64,000 nucleotides of DNA from Candidatus Binatia bacterium (GTDB lineage Bacteria > Desulfobacterota > Binatia > UBA9968 > CAXXLF01). The notes under the pieces are model-generated. The model ran no database searches. It was not told where the DNA came from and was given only the letters and a program-made list of their open reading frames with translations. The stretch covers positions 1,568,001-1,632,000 of the forward strand of contig CAXXLF010000002.1 in the NCBI GenBank assembly GCA_963664015.2, in the 5' to 3' direction. The translations under genes were made by a program, and so were the position numbers. Numbering within the stretch: position 1 is the stretch's first letter; each line of letters begins with the position of its first letter. Shown here in pieces: positions 2,943-40,219 of the stretch.

Positions 2943-3971
2943 GTGGAAGACTATCCCGCCATCGACGCCGATGGCCATATTATCGAGCGCAGGGAAGAAC
3001 TCCGTCAGTACCTGGAACCGCCTTACAATAAGCGCGGAGGAACCCTGACCCCCTCAGAACCGTGGGACCGGAGTCTCTACGGCAAACTTCCCTTGAATCA
3101 GGACGATTTTCCGTCGGTTCCGAGCGCCGAGGATTGGCTTCGCTTGATGGATAGGAGCCAGATAAGCGACGCGTATCTCTACCCGACCTCCATGGGAAAC
3201 GTCTCCCGGGTGCGCGAGGTGGACTTCGCTGTCGCCCTCAGCACAGCCTACAACAACTACGTCCACGACAAGTTTGCCAAGGTTTCGGATCGGCTGAAAC
3301 CCATTGCCCTGATTTCACCGCAGGATCCGGTCAGGGCGGCGAAGGAGCTGCGGCGGGCGGTAACGGATCTTGGCTACCGGGCCGGAGTGGTCCGAACGAC
3401 CGGCTTGCGATTGCCTCTCGGACATAGTTTTTACGATCCGATCTATGAGGAAGCGAGTCGTCTCGGCTGCGCCATCGCAGTTCACGGCACCAACGGCGGC
3501 GAGGAGGTTGCCTGTGGGGGATTCGACACCTTCACCGAGGTCCACACGGTCTCCTTTCCCGTAGGTATCATGGCTCAATTTACAAGCATGATCTATCAGG
3601 GCGTGCCGGAGCGTTACCCCAATCTTCGTTTGGCTTTCTTGGAAATCGGCTGCACATGGCTGCCCTACTGGCTGAACCGGATGGACGAGCACTGGGAGAA
3701 ACGGGGCACAGTGGAAACACCAAATTTGAAACGTCCTCCAAGCGAGTGCGTGCGCGAGCGGGGTATCTACTTTAGTCTCGAGGCAGAGGAGACCCTGTTG
3801 CCCGAGACCCTCAGATACGTTGGCGACAGTCACTTCCTGTATGCCACCGATATCCCCCACTGGGATAACGAATACAAAGAGAACCTGAATCGACTCAGGT
3901 CGCGAGACGACCTCTCCCCAGAGACAAAGAAAAAGCTCCTGCACGATAACGCGATAGCCCTGTACAGGTAG
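2943..3971 (+). CDS. Amidohydrolase-2 family protein
   Basis: DADGH, AVHG, AFLEIGCTWLP and YATDIPHWD motifs. Confidence 0.9.
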   Translation: MEDYPAIDADGHIIERREELRQYLEPPYNKRGGTLTPSEPWDRSLYGKLPLNQDDFPSVPSAEDWLRLMDRSQISDAYLYPTSMGNVSRVREVDFAVALSTAYNNYVHDKFAKVSDRLKPIALISPQDPVRAAKELRRAVTDLGYRAGVVRTTGLRLPLGHSFYDPIYEEASRLGCAIAVHGTNGGEEVACGGFDTFTEVHTVSFPVGIMAQFTSMIYQGVPERYPNLRLAFLEIGCTWLPYWLNRMDEHWEKRGTVETPNLKRPPSECVRERGIYFSLEAEETLLPETLRYVGDSHFLYATDIPHWDNEYKENLNRLRSRDDLSPETKKKLLHDNAIALYR

Positions 3972-14929: not shown

Positions 14930-16693
14930 ATGACCGTGGAGGGACAAGCGACCCATTGGGATATGGAGGCGGACGTCGTTGTGATCGGCGCAGGGGCCAC
15001 CGGTTTGCCGGCATCCATCGCTGCACGGGATAACGGAGCGTCAGTGCTCGTGGTTAACGCTAATTACGACATTGGGGGCCACGCCATCCTGAGCGGCGGC
15101 AATACGGCGCTGGGGGGCGGCACCATTTTGCAGAGAAAATACGGTATTGAAGATTCACCGGACCTGGTATTCTCTGATCTGACCGACTGGTCCGTCGTGG
15201 AACCCAACGGCTCACCCAATTATCGATATAACGACAGGGCCGTCATTCGCGCCTATACCGATCACGCGGTCGAGACTTTCGAATTCCTGGTAGCCAACGG
15301 GGTAGAGTTTGCGGACAAGGCCCCGGACAACTCGGGTGCTCATTGCACCGGCAATTCGGCTCCCAGAGAAAATCATACGGATTGGACTGAAGGGGTAGGT
15401 CTGGCCAGTCCCGGCGCCAAAAAAGGGACTGGTCTCATCCGACCCCTCGAGGCAAGCGCTCGGGCCAAAGGCGTGAAGCTCCTCCTCAATCATAAAATGA
15501 CGGGCCTTTTCAGGGAAACCACGTCGGGCATGGGGGCGGGAAGGGTAACGGGGATTACCGCCCAGTACACCCCTAGATTACTCCCAGGAGCGACTACACC
15601 GCTCGGAAGCTATCGTTCCGAAGGAAACATCGAGAGTACCAAGCCAAGCATCAGTATCCACGCGGCCAAGGCCGTTATCGTCGCCACCGGGGGAAGCACG
15701 GGCAACGTCAACTTCCGCCGCATGTTCGACCCCAGGTTGACCGAGGTCTACCAGGTCGCCGGCGAGCCCTATTCGTTCCAGGACGCGAGTGGCGAGATTG
15801 CCGCCATGGCCATCGGCGCGTCGCTCTGGGGACTGGGTAATCAAGCTCTCGAAAACGGCGATCATATGAGGACCCAGAAGGCGATTGGGTGCCAGTACAA
15901 TTATTTCACCTGGGCACTGGCCAGCCCTATTTTCCCCCTGGTTCGTGCTACCGGGCTGAACGTCAAAGATTGGCAAAATCTCATCATGGTCAACCAGGCG
16001 GGGCAGCGATTCTACGATGAGACCCAGGGAGATTACCCGGCGGGGAACAAATTTAACGATCTCAGCCCTTATACGCCGCGCAGCCACCGCAATCCGGGAC
16101 AGATCCAATACGAATGGAGCCGGTACAACTTCCTCAATGCCGCCACAGCGATGAATGCGGCTTCGGTTCCTCCGGACTATCCGGCCGGGCCCGTCTGGGC
16201 CATTTTCGACGCGGAGGCCGTAAAACGTGAGAAATGGAAAACCACCCCACCTCACGTGGATCCAGACGGTTATTTCTTCAGCGCACAAACTCTCGCGGAC
16301 CTTGCTGCCGCTATCCGAACCCCATTTCAGGACGCTCCGATGAACGCCGCGACGTTGCAAGCCATGGTCACGCGATACAATTCCTTTGTCGATTCCGGAA
16401 CCGACTCGGACTTTGACAAGCCCTCACCACAATTCAAGATCCAAACGCCGCCGTTCTACGCGGCCTGGGCTACGCCGTTGCTCCACGACACACGGTCCGG
16501 TCTAAGAATCAACGGCAAGGGCCAGGTGATGGACATGAACGGCCAGGTCATACCCGGCCTCTACCGTGGCGGTGAGTCCGCCGGTGGATTCAATCAACAT
16601 GGTCTGGGCCGATGCTCCTGCCAGGGTTACATCGCCGGTCAAAACGCCTCTGGAGAAACTCTTGGGAAAAATGAACTCACAAGGGAGAAATGA
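14930..16693 (+). CDS. FAD-binding dehydrogenase (fumarate reductase / ketosteroid dehydrogenase flavoprotein superfamily)
   Basis: DVVVIGAGATG, VIVATGG, TRSGLRIN and IPGLY..GE motifs. Confidence 0.85.
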   Translation: MTVEGQATHWDMEADVVVIGAGATGLPASIAARDNGASVLVVNANYDIGGHAILSGGNTALGGGTILQRKYGIEDSPDLVFSDLTDWSVVEPNGSPNYRYNDRAVIRAYTDHAVETFEFLVANGVEFADKAPDNSGAHCTGNSAPRENHTDWTEGVGLASPGAKKGTGLIRPLEASARAKGVKLLLNHKMTGLFRETTSGMGAGRVTGITAQYTPRLLPGATTPLGSYRSEGNIESTKPSISIHAAKAVIVATGGSTGNVNFRRMFDPRLTEVYQVAGEPYSFQDASGEIAAMAIGASLWGLGNQALENGDHMRTQKAIGCQYNYFTWALASPIFPLVRATGLNVKDWQNLIMVNQAGQRFYDETQGDYPAGNKFNDLSPYTPRSHRNPGQIQYEWSRYNFLNAATAMNAASVPPDYPAGPVWAIFDAEAVKREKWKTTPPHVDPDGYFFSAQTLADLAAAIRTPFQDAPMNAATLQAMVTRYNSFVDSGTDSDFDKPSPQFKIQTPPFYAAWATPLLHDTRSGLRINGKGQVMDMNGQVIPGLYRGGESAGGFNQHGLGRCSCQGYIAGQNASGETLGKNELTREK

Positions 16694-17176
16694 TTGATGG
16701 AAGCCGGATGGGTTACCGTTGTTGAAGTCCTGCTGCGCATCGCCCTGGGGCTTCGTTTTCTTTACAGTGGGGTGGACAACGTCCGGCGTTGGCCGAGCGC
16801 CATTGGCGCCGCACGGTCCGTGTTTTCAAAAGGGGCGACGCTCCTTGCCTTCATCGCCGTGGCTTTCCTTGTCCTGGGAGCCACCGGGTTGACCCTGGGT
16901 TTTCAGACTCGAATCGCCGCGCTGATGATCGCCCTATTTCTCATTCCAACCTTTGTCGTGCAGTACAATTTTCTAAAGACCTATCCCCAATTGCTAAAAA
17001 AGCTCTTGAGCTCCATACCGGAGGACGGTCCTATGGCCGAGGCCCAGCGACTGGGGCGCCACGCCGTGCACACGTCGGAGGTGGGTTGGCAGACCAACGT
17101 GATTTTTCTCCTGTTGTCCGTTTACTTCATCCTGCGCGGTTCCGTTGCCTTCGGCCTCGACAATCTCCTGGGATGA
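16694..17176 (+). CDS. DoxX family membrane protein
   Basis: LRIALG..FLYSG, LGFQTRIAA and G..AFGLD motifs; abuts the flavoprotein stop codon. Confidence 0.8.
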   Translation: MMEAGWVTVVEVLLRIALGLRFLYSGVDNVRRWPSAIGAARSVFSKGATLLAFIAVAFLVLGATGLTLGFQTRIAALMIALFLIPTFVVQYNFLKTYPQLLKKLLSSIPEDGPMAEAQRLGRHAVHTSEVGWQTNVIFLLLSVYFILRGSVAFGLDNLLG

Positions 17177-28745: not shown

Positions 28746-28879
28746 GACTGATGGAACAAGGCAGTAGCATCCCCTGGAACGGACTGAAAAGGAGCGGTGT
28801 CCGCTCAGAGTGGGAATCCAACACAGCCGGTGAGTCCGTCATCTCCGCCTCATGGGTACGCCACGGACTCCTCCGATAA

Positions 28880-29416
28880 CTATTCCCTTTTTCCTCCCTC
28901 CAGCCCACTCGTTGTCGAGAGGATCTTTTTCCCGTTGAGGGATATCTCGGTGGTTACGGGGATCGATTTATTCAATGTGTTTTCCACATAACAACGAGCG
29001 CTGGCATCACGAGCCAGGGCTTCGGCCTGATCCACCGGACAGTTGCCCTCCAGGTAGACTTGAAAAATCATATCCTGAAAGGACCTGGTCGCCCCCGAGT
29101 GGTGGGCCCTGGCGGTGACTTTCAATTGATCGATGGGGATATCTTTGGCAATTACCAAACTGGTATATTGCATGGTCAGTCAGCCAGCGGCCCCGGCCAC
29201 AAAGGTGCCCAGTGGCGTGGGGGCTCGATTGGTCCCTCCCCGCACCTCCGGTTCGTCCATCAAGATTTGGAACGACTTGTCATCCGTTTTGTAGACCGCT
29301 TCCAGGGTTTTTTGCTCCTGGTGTTGCACGTCGACCCGAACCGTCCCGATTCGGCCGCCGGGACGTTTGGGGCTCTCGCCTTTAACCTTTTTTACCAGTT
29401 CCGGGATAACACGCAT
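28880..29416 (-). CDS. OsmC/Ohr-family protein, probable selenoprotein (UGA read-through at 29180-29182)
   Basis: ORFs 29180-29416 and 28880-29173 are in frame (537 nt in total): DEP..RGG.N.APTP...AGAAG-UGA-LT, with UGA at the first catalytic Cys position, and ARCYVENTL as the second Cys. Confidence 0.8.
29148..29171 (-). promoter_or_regulatory. Candidate bacterial SECIS hairpin
   Basis: mRNA GCAAU-A-UACCA-GUU-UGGUA-AUUGC; the G-starting loop lies 19 nt after the UGA. Confidence 0.6.
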
Positions 29417-29760
29417 ATTTCCTAACTTCCTTTTCGGGGTATGAAGAAGACTCAGAGTTTCCCGGATACTCCCACAGGAGGGTCCGGGGCGTCAAGTCCA
29501 TTGGACGCCGCCACTGGGGAAACTCACGGATCCGAGATGTTTCGTGGGGTTGACCCACCTTGATTTCACGCTTATTCTTTTTGTTGGATCGGGGTTGACT
29601 AATGCCACCCGGGTGGCTAGTCTTCGCTCGATGGCGAACCGGAACGGGTATTATTCGCTGATCCGATTGCTTTGATGGCGCATCTTCCGAAGACACCTGC
29701 TCAGAGGAAATAACCATACTCGTCTTTAATCAATAATCTATTGCTAAGGAGGAAGCGACT

Positions 29761-30519
29761 ATGTACACGACAGACCAATACGAAGGAATGATAGCGGAAA
29801 CGGTAACAATGCCGGGGCACAATGGGGACACCATCAATGCCTACTTTGCGCGCCCTATGGGTGCGGGGCCTTTCCCAGGCATGGTTTTGATTCACCATAT
29901 GCCCGGTTGGGACGAGTTGTATCGGGAGTTCACCCGCAAGTTCGCCCACCACGGCTACGCGACCATCTGCCCTAATATCTATTTTCGCGCGGGGCATGGC
30001 ACTGTGGACGATGTAACGGCGAAGGTACGGGGCGCGGGAGGGTTGGCGGACGATCAAGTGGTCGGTGATATTGTCGGGGGGATGCAGTTTCTACGCTCGC
30101 TTCCCAACAACAATGGGAAGGTCGGGGTCTTCGGCACCTGCTCCGGGGGGCGTCATGCCTTTCTTACGGCCTGCCGGTCCAAGGGATTTGATGCCCTCGT
30201 CGAATGTTGGGGTGGTGGCGTCGTCGCGGCCAAGGATGCCCTGACCCCGCAGAGGCCCGTTGCGCCCATCGACTATACCAAAGACCTCGGTTGTCCCATC
30301 ATCGGGATCTTTGGAAACGACGACAAGAATCCGTCGCCGGATCAAGTCAACCTGCACGAAGAAGAGTTGAAAAAGGCCGGGAAGAATTATGAGTTCCATC
30401 GATACGATGGAGCGGGGCATGGTTTCTTCTACTATGACCGTACTCCCTACCGGCAGGAGCAGGCGGTAGATGGCTGGAAGAAGATCTTCCCGTTTCTCGA
30501 GAAACATCTCAAAGCGTAA
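29761..30519 (+). CDS. Dienelactone hydrolase family protein
   Basis: G.CSGG nucleophile elbow, GNDD and AGHGF. Confidence 0.9.
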   Translation: MYTTDQYEGMIAETVTMPGHNGDTINAYFARPMGAGPFPGMVLIHHMPGWDELYREFTRKFAHHGYATICPNIYFRAGHGTVDDVTAKVRGAGGLADDQVVGDIVGGMQFLRSLPNNNGKVGVFGTCSGGRHAFLTACRSKGFDALVECWGGGVVAAKDALTPQRPVAPIDYTKDLGCPIIGIFGNDDKNPSPDQVNLHEEELKKAGKNYEFHRYDGAGHGFFYYDRTPYRQEQAVDGWKKIFPFLEKHLKA

Positions 30520-31987: not shown

Positions 31988-33010
31988 ATGGAAAGTATGA
32001 AGGACGCGATCCAAATCGTTGACGCTGATGCTCATGCTCGGGACCTGGATGAAAACCTCAGACCTTATTTGCCGGAGCCATACCGGAGTCGAAAGGCGGT
32101 ATTCATGCCGCGGGAGCCCTATGACCGAAACCTCGGGGGAACCTTGGGGCACCAGGGAGCCAAACATGAGGAACGGCTGAGTGCCATGGACCGGCAGGAG
32201 ATCGAAACGGCGGTTCTCTATCCAACGGGTGGTCTGGGTATCGGGCGAGTACGGGACGCAGCCTATCAGTCCGCCCTGTGCCGCGCTTACAACGATTTTA
32301 TTACCGATTACTGTAAGGCCTCTCCCCGTCTCAAGGCGGTAGCCAATCTGCCGGTCAATAGCCCCGACGACGCGGTTAGGGAATTGAATCGGGCGGTGAC
32401 CGAATTAGGTCTCGTGGGAGCCATGCTTGCAGCTCAAGCCCATAACAAGAACCTGGGCAGTCCGGAGTTCTATCCCCTTTATGAAGAGGCCCAGAGGTTG
32501 GGCGTGCCCCTGGCCATGCATGCTTTTGGCGGCGACGAAGCAGGAAGTGAAATATTCGATCAGTTTATCTGCATTCACACGACAGGCCACCCCTTTCCGG
32601 TACTGAGGCAGCTCACGGGCATGGTCTACGGAGGTATTCCCGAGCTCTTCCCACAGCTCAAACTGGCCTATCTGGAGATCGGTTGCGGTTGGCTGCCCTA
32701 TTGGATGGATCGTATGGACGAGGAATGGGAGAAGCGTGGGAAGGTGGAGGCTCCGCTTTGTAAAAAGAAACCTAGTGAATACCTCACTAATGAACAGTTC
32801 TATTATGGGGTTGAGCCGAAAGAGAAAACCATGGGGTATGTGGTTGGAGAGATCGGGTCGCAGAACCTACTCTATGCCTCCGACTACCCCCATTGGGATA
32901 TGAGTTGGCCGGATTCGGCGGTGTTGATCTGGCAAAGGAATGACCTTTCCACCGAAGCGAAAAAAGATATTTTGGAAAACAACGCGCGGCGCCTTTACAA
33001 GCTATCCTGA
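31988..33010 (+). CDS. Amidohydrolase-2 family protein
   Basis: DADAH, AMH, AYLEIGCGWLP and YASDYPHWD; close paralog of 2943-3971. Confidence 0.9.
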   Translation: MESMKDAIQIVDADAHARDLDENLRPYLPEPYRSRKAVFMPREPYDRNLGGTLGHQGAKHEERLSAMDRQEIETAVLYPTGGLGIGRVRDAAYQSALCRAYNDFITDYCKASPRLKAVANLPVNSPDDAVRELNRAVTELGLVGAMLAAQAHNKNLGSPEFYPLYEEAQRLGVPLAMHAFGGDEAGSEIFDQFICIHTTGHPFPVLRQLTGMVYGGIPELFPQLKLAYLEIGCGWLPYWMDRMDEEWEKRGKVEAPLCKKKPSEYLTNEQFYYGVEPKEKTMGYVVGEIGSQNLLYASDYPHWDMSWPDSAVLIWQRNDLSTEAKKDILENNARRLYKLS

Positions 33011-33019
33011 AGACATACA

Positions 33020-34298
33020 TTCGGTTCAGGGGATAGCCGAGAAAGCCGGGTCGAGGCGACACAGAGAGCTCTTCCACGTCTCCAAGCTGACACTCCATAG
33101 CGCGGGTCCGGGCCCCGGTTTCCTCGATGACAGTAGTCGCACTGCTCAGTTGCTGTTTGAGTTTATCGAGGTCGGTACCAAATTTTCCGAACTCAGTCTT
33201 GACGGCAGCGAGCACCTTCCAGACTCCCTTCGCCCGCTCCTCGATCATGAGAGTGCGGAAACCTATGCGCAGGCTATTGAGGATAACCGCCAGGGTGGTA
33301 GGGCCGGCAACGACGACACGATAGTTCTGTTGAAGGTCGTCAACCAGCTCCGGCTGGCGCATGAGCTCTCCGTAAAGGCCCTCAATGGGAATAAATATTA
33401 TGCCGAAGTCGGTAGTCTTGGGAGGGTTTAGGTATTTATCCTTCATGGTTTTTGCTAGACCGCGTATGGCCTTGGTCAACTCATCGACGGCTTTTTTAGC
33501 GGTATCGGCATCACCGGTTTCTGCCGCTGCCTGCAGCTGGCGGTACTCCTCCGCGGGGAACTTGGAGTCTATGGGTAGCCAGACCCAACTGTCCTCTGGG
33601 TTACCCGGGCCCGGCAGTCGAATCGCGTATTCCACGGTTTCGTTGAATTTCTCTTTCGTTTTAATGTTCTTGTCGTACTGATTGGGTGTTAGCAACTGCT
33701 CCAGCGGGGCGTTGAGTTGGAACTCGCCCCAGTTCCCCCGTGTCTTGACGCCGGTGAAAACTTTCTTTAGATCACCAACTCCAGTTGCCAGGTTTTACAT
33801 CTCGCCCAGCCCATCGTGAACCGCATTAAGCCGGTCGCTGAGAAGCTGGAAGGATTCGCCTAGTCGTTTCTCGATAGTGCCGTGTAGTTTATCATCCACG
33901 GTCATACGCATATCTTCCAGTCCTTTTTCATTGTTGTCTTGCAGCTCCCTCAGTTGGGTGTCCGCCGTTTCACAGAGCTCTTCAATATGCGCCGCATGAG
34001 TATCGGTGATCTCGTTGAGTAGCTTGCTGACCGACTCCAGTTGCACCGATTGCTGGCTGCCAATTTCATTGATGACCCGTACCATAGAGTCGCTGACCAA
34101 ATTGAGGCCCCTGCTAACCTCCTCCCTCAGGTCGCGATCGGTCCTGGCCGCTTCGCCGCGGGCGATGCGTAGTTCTTCGCGCACGGCCTTCTCGGCTTAC
34201 TGCGATGCCGATCCCGACAACCACATCAAGACAAGCAACAGCACGACGTTGGCAATCAGGAGAAAAACGGTCAGGGATGGTAAAATTTCAGTTAGCAT
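33020..34298 (-). pseudogene. rmuC: DNA recombination protein RmuC, nonsense-disrupted
   Basis: TIEKRLGESF, KTRGNWGE, LPIDSKFP, PPKTTDF and PTTLAVILNSL; in-frame TAA at about 34197 and at 33795; 3' end approximate. Confidence 0.85.
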
Positions 34299-39403: not shown

Positions 39404-40147
39404 TCAGGTTAAATATTTACCAAACCAGTTAAAGACTCTGTTCCATCCATCCAGCGCCGCATCCGGCCAGTAGCCCGGACGGTCAACGGAAAAGAAACCG
39501 TGGGCCGCGTTTCCGTACGAATAAAACTCATGGGTCTTACCAAGCCGCTTGAGTTCCGCGTCGATCGTCGCCACATCGTCCGGAGAGGGATGGGTGTCTT
39601 CTTTGCCAAAGAGGCCCAACAAGGGGGAATGCATATTCGACGTTAGATCAATCGGGGCTACCGGGTGGCGGGGAGTGAGTTTGTCCGTAGGGGTTACGAT
39701 TCCTCCACCGTAGCAGACAACGGTCGCGTCGATGTCAGCGAAGGTGCATGCAGCAAGATAAGCTTGGCGGCCACCGGAACAGTGCCCCACAACACCGACC
39801 TTTCCCTTACCGTAGGGTAGCGATCGCATGTGCCGGATGGACCCTTCAACGTCCCCCATGGAGCGGTCGTCGGGCATACCTCCCGCTGCCCGGACACTGG
39901 CGACATTGGCTTCGGGACTTCCCTTGCCTTCCCGATAGTGAAGATTAGGTACGATTGCCGCGTAGCCATGATAGGCCAACTTGCGGGCAATTTCCTTGGT
40001 GGATTCATCCCACCCTGGCATGTGATGGATGACAACAACCGAAGGGTACGGCCCTTGGCCCAGGGGACGGGCCAGATAAGCCTCGATCCTGTCCCCATTG
40101 TGTCCCGCAAGGGCGACACTTTCCGCTAGCATCCCTTCATAAACCAT
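39404..40147 (-). CDS. Dienelactone hydrolase family protein, paralog of 29761-30519
   Basis: IHHMPGWD, GHCSGGR and AAHGF motifs. Confidence 0.88.
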   Translation of the reverse strand: MVYEGMLAESVALAGHNGDRIEAYLARPLGQGPYPSVVVIHHMPGWDESTKEIARKLAYHGYAAIVPNLHYREGKGSPEANVASVRAAGGMPDDRSMGDVEGSIRHMRSLPYGKGKVGVVGHCSGGRQAYLAACTFADIDATVVCYGGGIVTPTDKLTPRHPVAPIDLTSNMHSPLLGLFGKEDTHPSPDDVATIDAELKRLGKTHEFYSYGNAAHGFFSVDRPGYWPDAALDGWNRVFNWFGKYLT

Positions 40148-40219
40148 CTTTTGTCTCCTTACTTCCTTAAAACTCCTCTCGCCTATGTCGCGACTGTGAT
40201 CAAGAGCTCGCCGACACAG

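Follow-up and report, generated by a model that had tools for sequence, protein, structure and literature searches.

OsmC-like selenoproteins were first described in 2005 from the Sargasso Sea metagenome, as three sequences of COG1765 with a UxxT motif (PMC1088965), appear in the selenoprotein counts for the Olavius symbiont data set (PMC1976440), and are listed with the same motif in reviews of 2022 and 2026 (PMC9312934, PMC13188914), the family being placed in the COG1765/YhfA branch (PMC9312934). The Ohr/OsmC proteins have a peroxidatic and a resolving cysteine (Cys), with catalytic Arg and Glu, and are re-reduced by lipoylated proteins, and the review that describes them terms the biochemistry of the YhfA-like branch uninvestigated (PMC8945050). 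Here, we analyzed a 64,000-nucleotide stretch of a Candidatus Binatia bacterium (contig CAXXLF010000002.1, positions 1,568,001 to 1,632,000; hereafter the window), in which an original prediction made from the sequence alone had proposed a hidden OsmC-family selenoprotein gene with an in-frame UGA decoded as selenocysteine (Sec). Its statement that OsmC-like selenoproteins had been reported before agrees with PMC1088965, PMC9312934 and PMC13188914, and a literature search on Binatia selenocysteine, in a limited collection without supplementary tables, gave nothing on the selenoproteins of this lineage among the papers listed, the single candidate (PMC9999580) mentioning selenocysteine in its references only.

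The gene lies on the minus strand at 29416..28880 and comprises 178 codons (ATG at 29416..29414) followed by a TAA stop (28882..28880). Under genetic code table 11, it is seen as two open reading frames (ORFs) of one frame, 29416..29180 (78 aa) and 29173..28880 (97 aa, starting at M82), and the gap between them consists only of the TGA and two codons. This TGA, codon 79 (29180..29182), falls in the first (peroxidatic) Cys column and is the predicted Sec codon, and the second invariant Cys, predicted to be the resolving one, is Cys142, encoded by TGT (28991..28993). The read-through product reads ...PLGTFVAGAAG-U-LTMQYTSLVIAKDIP...ASARCYVENT...GGKRE before the TAA, with ...FVAGAAG-U-LTMQYTSLVIAK... 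as the context of TGA79 and C142 within ASARCYVENT. By inspection, an AGGA at 29420..29423, 3 nt upstream of the ATG, may serve as a Shine-Dalgarno-like site, and the start peptides of the orthologues are MRVIPELV, MRLNPELL or MHVNPELV. The single frame of the two ORFs, the UGA at the peroxidatic column and the retained Cys of RCYV were therefore predicted correctly in every detail. We consider that 29416..28880 is very probably one intact gene decoded with Sec at codon 79, and this selenoprotein reading is well supported at the sequence level: the frame, the domain, the Sec machinery, the Sec/Cys pairs, the purifying selection past the UGA and the RNA-level constraint on a hairpin were observed directly, and the actual insertion of Sec at codon 79 is what we infer.

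The Pfam OsmC domain (PF02566) covers residues 61-157, spanning the TGA, with 56.1 bits against a cut-off of 27.5 and the whole profile aligned (1-100 of 100). Among the NCBIfam models, the best match is the curated NF041052, 'OsmC-related (seleno)protein' (89.6 bits, E 1.8e-25, with C for U), which designates the best-matching family, and of this family the gene is a borderline outlier. In an AlphaFold2 (AF2) model based on an 11-sequence alignment (predicted local distance difference test, pLDDT, 86.6; predicted template-modelling score, pTM, 0.76), residue 79 falls midway along the long helix 68-90, and C142 lies where helix 128-141 meets helix 143-148. The top Foldseek matches of this model in the PDB were all OsmC/Ohr/YhfA-type (2opl, 1vla, 1lql, 1ml8 and others), with E-values of 4e-9 to 1e-6, a probability of 1.00 and template-modelling scores normalised to the target of up to 0.86. 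In addition, a profile search against PDB sequences retrieved the OsmC-like 3cje (E 4.5e-21) with both Cys columns aligned, and U/C79 and C142 are invariant columns in the family alignment. Judged by the modelled OsmC fold and the presence of both catalytic Cys positions, the protein is a member of the OsmC/Ohr/YhfA superfamily.

The clade of this gene was found in 4 of the 301 sampled genomes of the class, at 7 species-genome loci and at 6 metagenome loci, the related records being titled Candidatus Binatia or Deltaproteobacteria metagenome-assembled genomes (MAGs). Codon 79 is TGA in four other orthologue loci representing three distinct sequences, namely L021 (the same as L044, in genome G002; 63-65% identical to this gene), L057 (75%) and L058/L059 (65-66%, with coding sequences identical to each other), and their nucleotide identity to this gene is 67-72%. 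The same column is TGC or TGT in L022/L045, L023/L048, L046, L047, L049 and L060-L062, which form the Cys side of the clade, and 11 full-length Cys forms (163-182 aa) are present in the public protein collection. Both kinds of copy, Sec and Cys, occur together in one related genome, G002. In a maximum-likelihood tree, the clade sits on a long branch with full support (100/100), within which the Sec forms group (80/100) inside an unresolved polytomy with the Cys forms. Two degraded copies were also seen in this clade. G004 has, besides an intact copy of the Cys clade, the remnant of a Sec-clade copy (L056, G004:C7:1158535-1158792; 64% identical to this gene). Only its last ~ 86 codons survive, and unrelated sequence has taken the place of the 5' part, which would have comprised the Sec codon and the greater part of the hairpin described below. 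On a MAG contig, a Cys-clade copy (L050, match 3001-3300) loses similarity past about residue 105 and has several stops, so that it is probably frameshifted or broken.

The part of the gene past the UGA evolves as a protein-coding sequence under purifying selection, with a ratio of nonsynonymous to synonymous substitution rates (dN/dS) of 0.148 for codons 80-171 in comparison with L021; this ratio is given for the post-UGA part only, since dS upstream of the UGA was saturated (NG86 returned -1). In addition, 24 columns past the UGA are invariant among 17 proteins. A 24-nt SECIS-like (selenocysteine insertion sequence-like) hairpin (29148..29171, minus strand) begins 9 nt past UGA79, and is made of a lower stem (GCAAU/AUUGC), a bulged A, an upper stem (UACCA/UGGUA) and a GUU loop (29160..29158) whose G is 19 nt after the A of the UGA. 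It corresponds to the bulged stem-loop with a G-starting loop 19 nt past the UGA that had been noticed initially. We then considered degenerate codon columns that encode one amino acid in all five Sec orthologue loci, and found that a single codon is used at 9 of 9 such columns in codons 80-91, versus 12 of 87 elsewhere (one-sided Fisher p = 2.3e-7, a value that is overstated owing to the relatedness of the sequences, two of which are identical). A comparison with L021 only gives the same picture, with unchanged codons at 8 of 8 positions in codons 80-91 versus 44 of 100 elsewhere. These frozen sites, located right at the hairpin, are the signature of an RNA element within the coding sequence and constitute the strongest single result of our analysis.

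The gene is also one of four OsmC-like selenoprotein genes in its genome. Three paralogues, L040 (G000:C2:1336549-1336971), L041 (G000:C1:76098-76526) and L042 (G000:C2:687852-688274), each have a single in-frame TGA, located in the column of codon 79, together with a SECIS hairpin more stable than that of this gene, and score over the NF041052 cut-off (162, 140 and 108 bits, respectively); indeed, every canonical paralogue examined has the in-frame TGA at this column. Among 41 genomes of the same order, 38 were matched by the family, and the 84 matches divide into 70 with an in-frame TGA, 13 without and 1 with TAA, most of these genomes having 1-4 OsmC-like genes with an in-frame TGA. OsmC-like selenoproteins thus seem to be a standing feature of the lineage. 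As a further observation on these paralogues, the contig of G023 that bears a Cys-clade gene (L045/L022) carries a canonical OsmC-like Sec paralogue of the UMFSQ type, with a hairpin (L045:1075-1122), ~ 2 kb away.

Hairpins were scored by our own script, in place of bSECISearch, with the constraints of the bacterial SECIS (bSECIS) model as given in the Fig. 2 legend of PMC13188914: 3-9 nt in the loop and 4-16 bp in the upper stem, a G among the first two loop nucleotides, a UGA-loop spacing of 16-37 nt and a minimum free energy (MFE) of -7.5 kcal/mol or lower. With 5 bp, GUU, 19 nt and -7.6 kcal/mol (-8.4 kcal/mol in context), the hairpin of this gene satisfies the four constraints tested by the script. 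It is present in all Sec orthologues, where the loop is GUG instead of GUU, and the hairpins of L057 and L058/L059, with one more U-A pair at the base, fold at -10.0 kcal/mol. In the family, the bSECIS test was passed by 17 of 18 distinct TGA forms versus none of 6 Cys forms. In all 19 distinct Sec forms of the wider family, the upper stem counts 5 bp or more, a G is among the first two loop nucleotides and the loop begins 19-21 nt past the UGA, and 15 of them show the combination seen in this gene, a G at the first loop position with the 19-nt spacing. The same 19 forms use 11 distinct stems, with 2-5 pair types per stem position when counted from the loop, and across the wider family the structure and spacing of the hairpin are therefore conserved while its sequence varies. 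Note that RNAalifold, run on an ungapped alignment of the 19 sequences anchored at the UGA, returned no consensus pairs because the loop lengths vary and the 3' arms shift. By itself, the hairpin of this gene is weak evidence, modestly beyond chance; together with the orthologues, it is far beyond chance.

The genome (3.51 Mb in 2 contigs, 97% complete, 53.6% GC) holds the whole Sec machinery. The genes selA, selB and selD are adjacent (C2:1306534-1312057) and exceed their curated cut-offs with 606, 409 and 373 bits, respectively, and a tRNA-SeC with anticodon tca was found by ARAGORN ~ 10 kb downstream of this cluster. The selD gene, which directly follows selA and selB, has one in-frame TGA of its own (L009, G000:C2:1311134-1312057) and so appears to encode a Sec-containing SelD. 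TGA terminates 293 of 795 long ORFs, so that no general reassignment of TGA exists in this genome. The original prediction had pointed to these machinery genes and to Cys/UGA pairs at the Sec column of homologues as the checks to be made: all of the former are present, and the latter are provided by the TGA of the four orthologue loci and the TGC/TGT of the sister clade. Neither a lack of machinery nor TGC/TGT in all close orthologues was found, the closest orthologues all having TGA.

Independent DNA was also available for this site, and the contigs of all four sequencing runs that cover it keep TGA79. Two of these runs are identical over the stretch and may be its source, and the other two (X7 and X9) are seawater metagenomes from other studies, diverged by ~ 2-3.5%. 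Both X7 and X9 carry A109E and A74T (window positions 29091 and 29197), G108E is seen in X7 only, and X9 is unchanged over 29103-29196. No RNA data set is listed among the 24 runs returned, which bears on expression neither way.

Several results weigh against a selenoprotein, and most of them concern the hairpin. It is short and AU-rich, and its energy lies barely beyond the threshold; the bSECIS model is also satisfied by 130 of 3000 synonymous recodings (4.3%), by 17 of 293 true TGA stops of long ORFs (5.8%) and by 302 of 3000 out-of-frame TGAs of the genome (10.1%). The fold of 81 nt has a z of -1.35, with 19 of 200 shuffles equally stable, and the plain MFE of the 45 nt past the UGA is matched by 17% of synonymous recodings, which is not significant. 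An Rfam search of window positions 28800-29500 in E-value mode returned no SECIS family and three chance-level matches (E 1.9-4.3). In L021, from G002, the lower stem has a C.U mismatch, and the hairpin (-4.5 kcal/mol) fails the energy threshold. In X7, V88A (29154 A>G) breaks a pair of the upper stem and leaves an MFE of -3.7 kcal/mol, a variant seen in one contig at a depth of 2.8 that may be an error. Moreover, the stem is invariant within the Sec clade, so that there is no compensatory change inside it, and covariation is confined to comparisons between paralogue classes, whose peptides differ too. At the protein level, 89.6 bits do not reach the NF041052 cut-off of 95 (81 bits in a six-frame genome search), the motif is U-L-T-M-Q-Y, with Thr at +2 and Met at +3, compared to the published UxxT, and no redox partner (thioredoxin, lipoyl, AhpD or regulator) adjoins the gene.

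Of the rival readings, the least improbable is a decoding of UGA79 that is not, or not only, as Sec, in which Cys on tRNA(Sec) or a near-cognate tRNA would be inserted and the hairpin would slow the ribosome. The low stability of the hairpin, which drops further in L021 and with the variant of X7, suits such a process, and Cys insertion at Sec codons is possible under selenium limitation. It is nevertheless very unlikely here, given a complete and intact Sec pathway, including a SelD with its own in-frame TGA, and a SelB-type geometry (G first in the loop, 19 nt) as in most members of the family. Even less probable is a split gene, in which translation would stop at UGA79 and a 97-residue C-terminal part would start from AUG82, the two polypeptides assembling or the back half working alone. 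In its favor, AUG82 lies two codons past the TGA and is invariant, and the 97-aa ORF is reported by gene callers in five public clusters. However, the TGA sits on the catalytic Cys column, so that splitting would remove the active-site residue; the sequence ahead of AUG82 has no purine run resembling a Shine-Dalgarno site (GGCUGACUGACC-AUG); M82 is conserved also in the unsplit Cys forms (CL[MA]MQY), and is therefore a structural residue and not a start; and the frozen synonymous sites run 3' of AUG82 across the hairpin, which fits a SECIS better than an initiation region. Just as improbable, and on the conservation data close to refuted, is a pseudogene in which a recent TGC/TGT to TGA mutation has left the downstream frame still undecayed: one base change in the codon of the Cys clade would yield the TGA and decay does occur in the subfamily (the 3' remnant of a Sec-type copy in G004 and the broken Cys form L050), but four other orthologue loci, at 63-75% protein identity, and the strain variants as well retain the TGA, dN/dS past it is low, and the three same-genome paralogues and 70 of the 84 family matches have an in-frame TGA. 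Pseudogene, split gene and non-Sec read-through, even when added together, are improbable.

If the gene is decoded with Sec as proposed, SelB carrying Sec-tRNA(Sec) would bind the 24-nt hairpin during translation, and Sec would then be inserted at UGA79 rather than termination taking place. U79, in the middle of the central helix, would occupy the place of the Ohr/OsmC peroxidatic Cys, with C142 as its partner. The selenolate of U79 would attack a hydroperoxide, C142 would capture the resulting selenenic acid in a selenenylsulfide, and the latter would be re-reduced by a dithiol donor, which in Ohr/OsmC is a lipoylated protein. By homology with Ohr/OsmC, peroxidase activity may thus be expected for this protein.

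In line with the splitting by standard annotation that had been anticipated, public protein collections contain the 97-aa back half as a protein of its own. Five public 97-aa clusters with the signature of the Sec clade start at M82 (96, 88, 76, 72 and 72% identical), and gene callers therefore cut Sec forms at the UGA. For one of these clusters, the NCBI name is 'OsmC family protein [Candidatus Binatia bacterium]'. Note that the TGA itself was confirmed only for the loci whose DNA was examined. On members of the clade, NF041052 gave 71.5-96.7 bits, with one of six tested passing (L023, 96.7), compared to 171 for a canonical paralogue. Since the clade falls just below the cut-off, public collections hold only the 97-residue back half without the catalytic residue, and selenoproteome counts for the lineage are therefore too low, an undercount that a lower NF041052 cut-off or a second model would fix.

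We tentatively propose, with more doubt than confidence, that OsmC-like selenoproteins have expanded across the lineage and that the gene represents a fourth, uncurated branch of this expansion, in which Sec and Cys forms coexist and an unusually small AU-rich SECIS works. If this is true, the clade would offer a natural paired system to learn what selenium buys an OsmC/YhfA-type enzyme, and a near-minimal natural SECIS (5-bp upper stem, 3-nt loop, about -7.6 kcal/mol, and weaker in G002) to define what SelB needs.

Concerning the genomic environment, the gene is followed by an MFS_3 transporter and preceded by a divergent dienelactone hydrolase, with amidohydrolases nearby; gene order in G002 differs from that of the window, and no functional lead could therefore be drawn from the context. 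A terminator-like GC-rich hairpin with a T-rich tail (28782..28806, minus strand; hairpin 28806..28792) lies 74 nt past the stop and before the MFS gene, and suggests a monocistronic transcript; it comes from a terminator consensus scan that gave 4 sites versus 1.2 expected in the region. The window contains two genes of the dienelactone-hydrolase family, 39407-40219 (minus strand) and 29761-30519 (plus strand), the latter being the divergent neighbor, separated from the selenoprotein gene by a 344-nt intergenic region. At a distance of 12 kb from the gene, a DoxX membrane protein comes after a FAD_binding_2 oxidoreductase (window 14930-17173, plus strand), and such a pair is also found at less than 1 kb from the Sec orthologue of G002 (L044 2-1027 and 2048-2542, minus strand), a proximity that may be loose synteny or chance.

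The original prediction had also spoken of other genes of the window broken by nonsense mutations, and this was not borne out, none being found among the tested same-frame ORF pairs. From 104 ORF pairs, six same-frame sets comprising 12 pieces were considered, and no domain is split across a stop; most of these sets are separate adjacent genes (FGE-sulfatase/UPF0047/DLH, FAD_binding_2/DoxX, LytB/Fer2 and GltB/AsnC). Elsewhere in the window, an RmuC-like ORF (33695..32787, in the region 32787-34196, minus strand) is matched by its Pfam profile from position 85 only and overlaps at its 3' end the amidohydrolase ORF 31988..33010 by ~ 220 nt. Upstream of it, across a TAA (33797..33795), a same-frame stretch of 133 codons is open and gave no Pfam match. 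This ORF may be an interrupted or mis-started gene.

Compared with the described systems, the gene stands closest to the NF041052 family, with which it shares the fold and domain, Sec at the first Cys column and retention of the second Cys, as well as an invariant Q at position +4 from Sec and a SECIS loop 19-21 nt past the UGA. It differs from the canonical paralogues, whose motifs are ULLT, UMLS, UMFS or ULHS, by the loss of 8 residues from the loop that follows residue 111, by the N-terminal extension that begins with MRVIPELV and by its AU-rich SECIS, much weaker than the canonical ones (-7.6 versus -8 to -15 kcal/mol). With Ohr/OsmC (1n2f, 1nye and 1vla; Foldseek E 7.5e-9 to 3.6e-6), it shares the two-Cys OsmC fold, in which the central helix bears the first Cys position and the kink of helix 2 the second, whereas the NCBIfam Ohr/OsmC models give 17-26 bits on this protein, far below their cut-offs, and those enzymes have Cys where this gene of the YhfA-like branch has Sec. 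The Cys sister clade (CL[MA]MQY; 'uncharacterized OsmC-like protein' in JGI records) is 46-58% identical over the full length, has the same architecture and shares R103-A104-H105, R141-C142, V144-E145-N146-T147 and L160-N161-G162 with this gene, but has TGC/TGT for TGA, lacks a hairpin passing the SECIS test in all six forms, and is called at full length by gene finders. With this locus, the poorly characterised YhfA-like branch gains a sister pair of Sec and Cys forms, together with a very small SECIS; both are usable experimentally, and knowledge of selenoproteins is left unchanged. Altogether, the locus reveals a gap in annotation and brings no new biology: the kind of enzyme is already known, and the gene belongs to a divergent sister clade of the canonical OsmC-like selenoprotein family.

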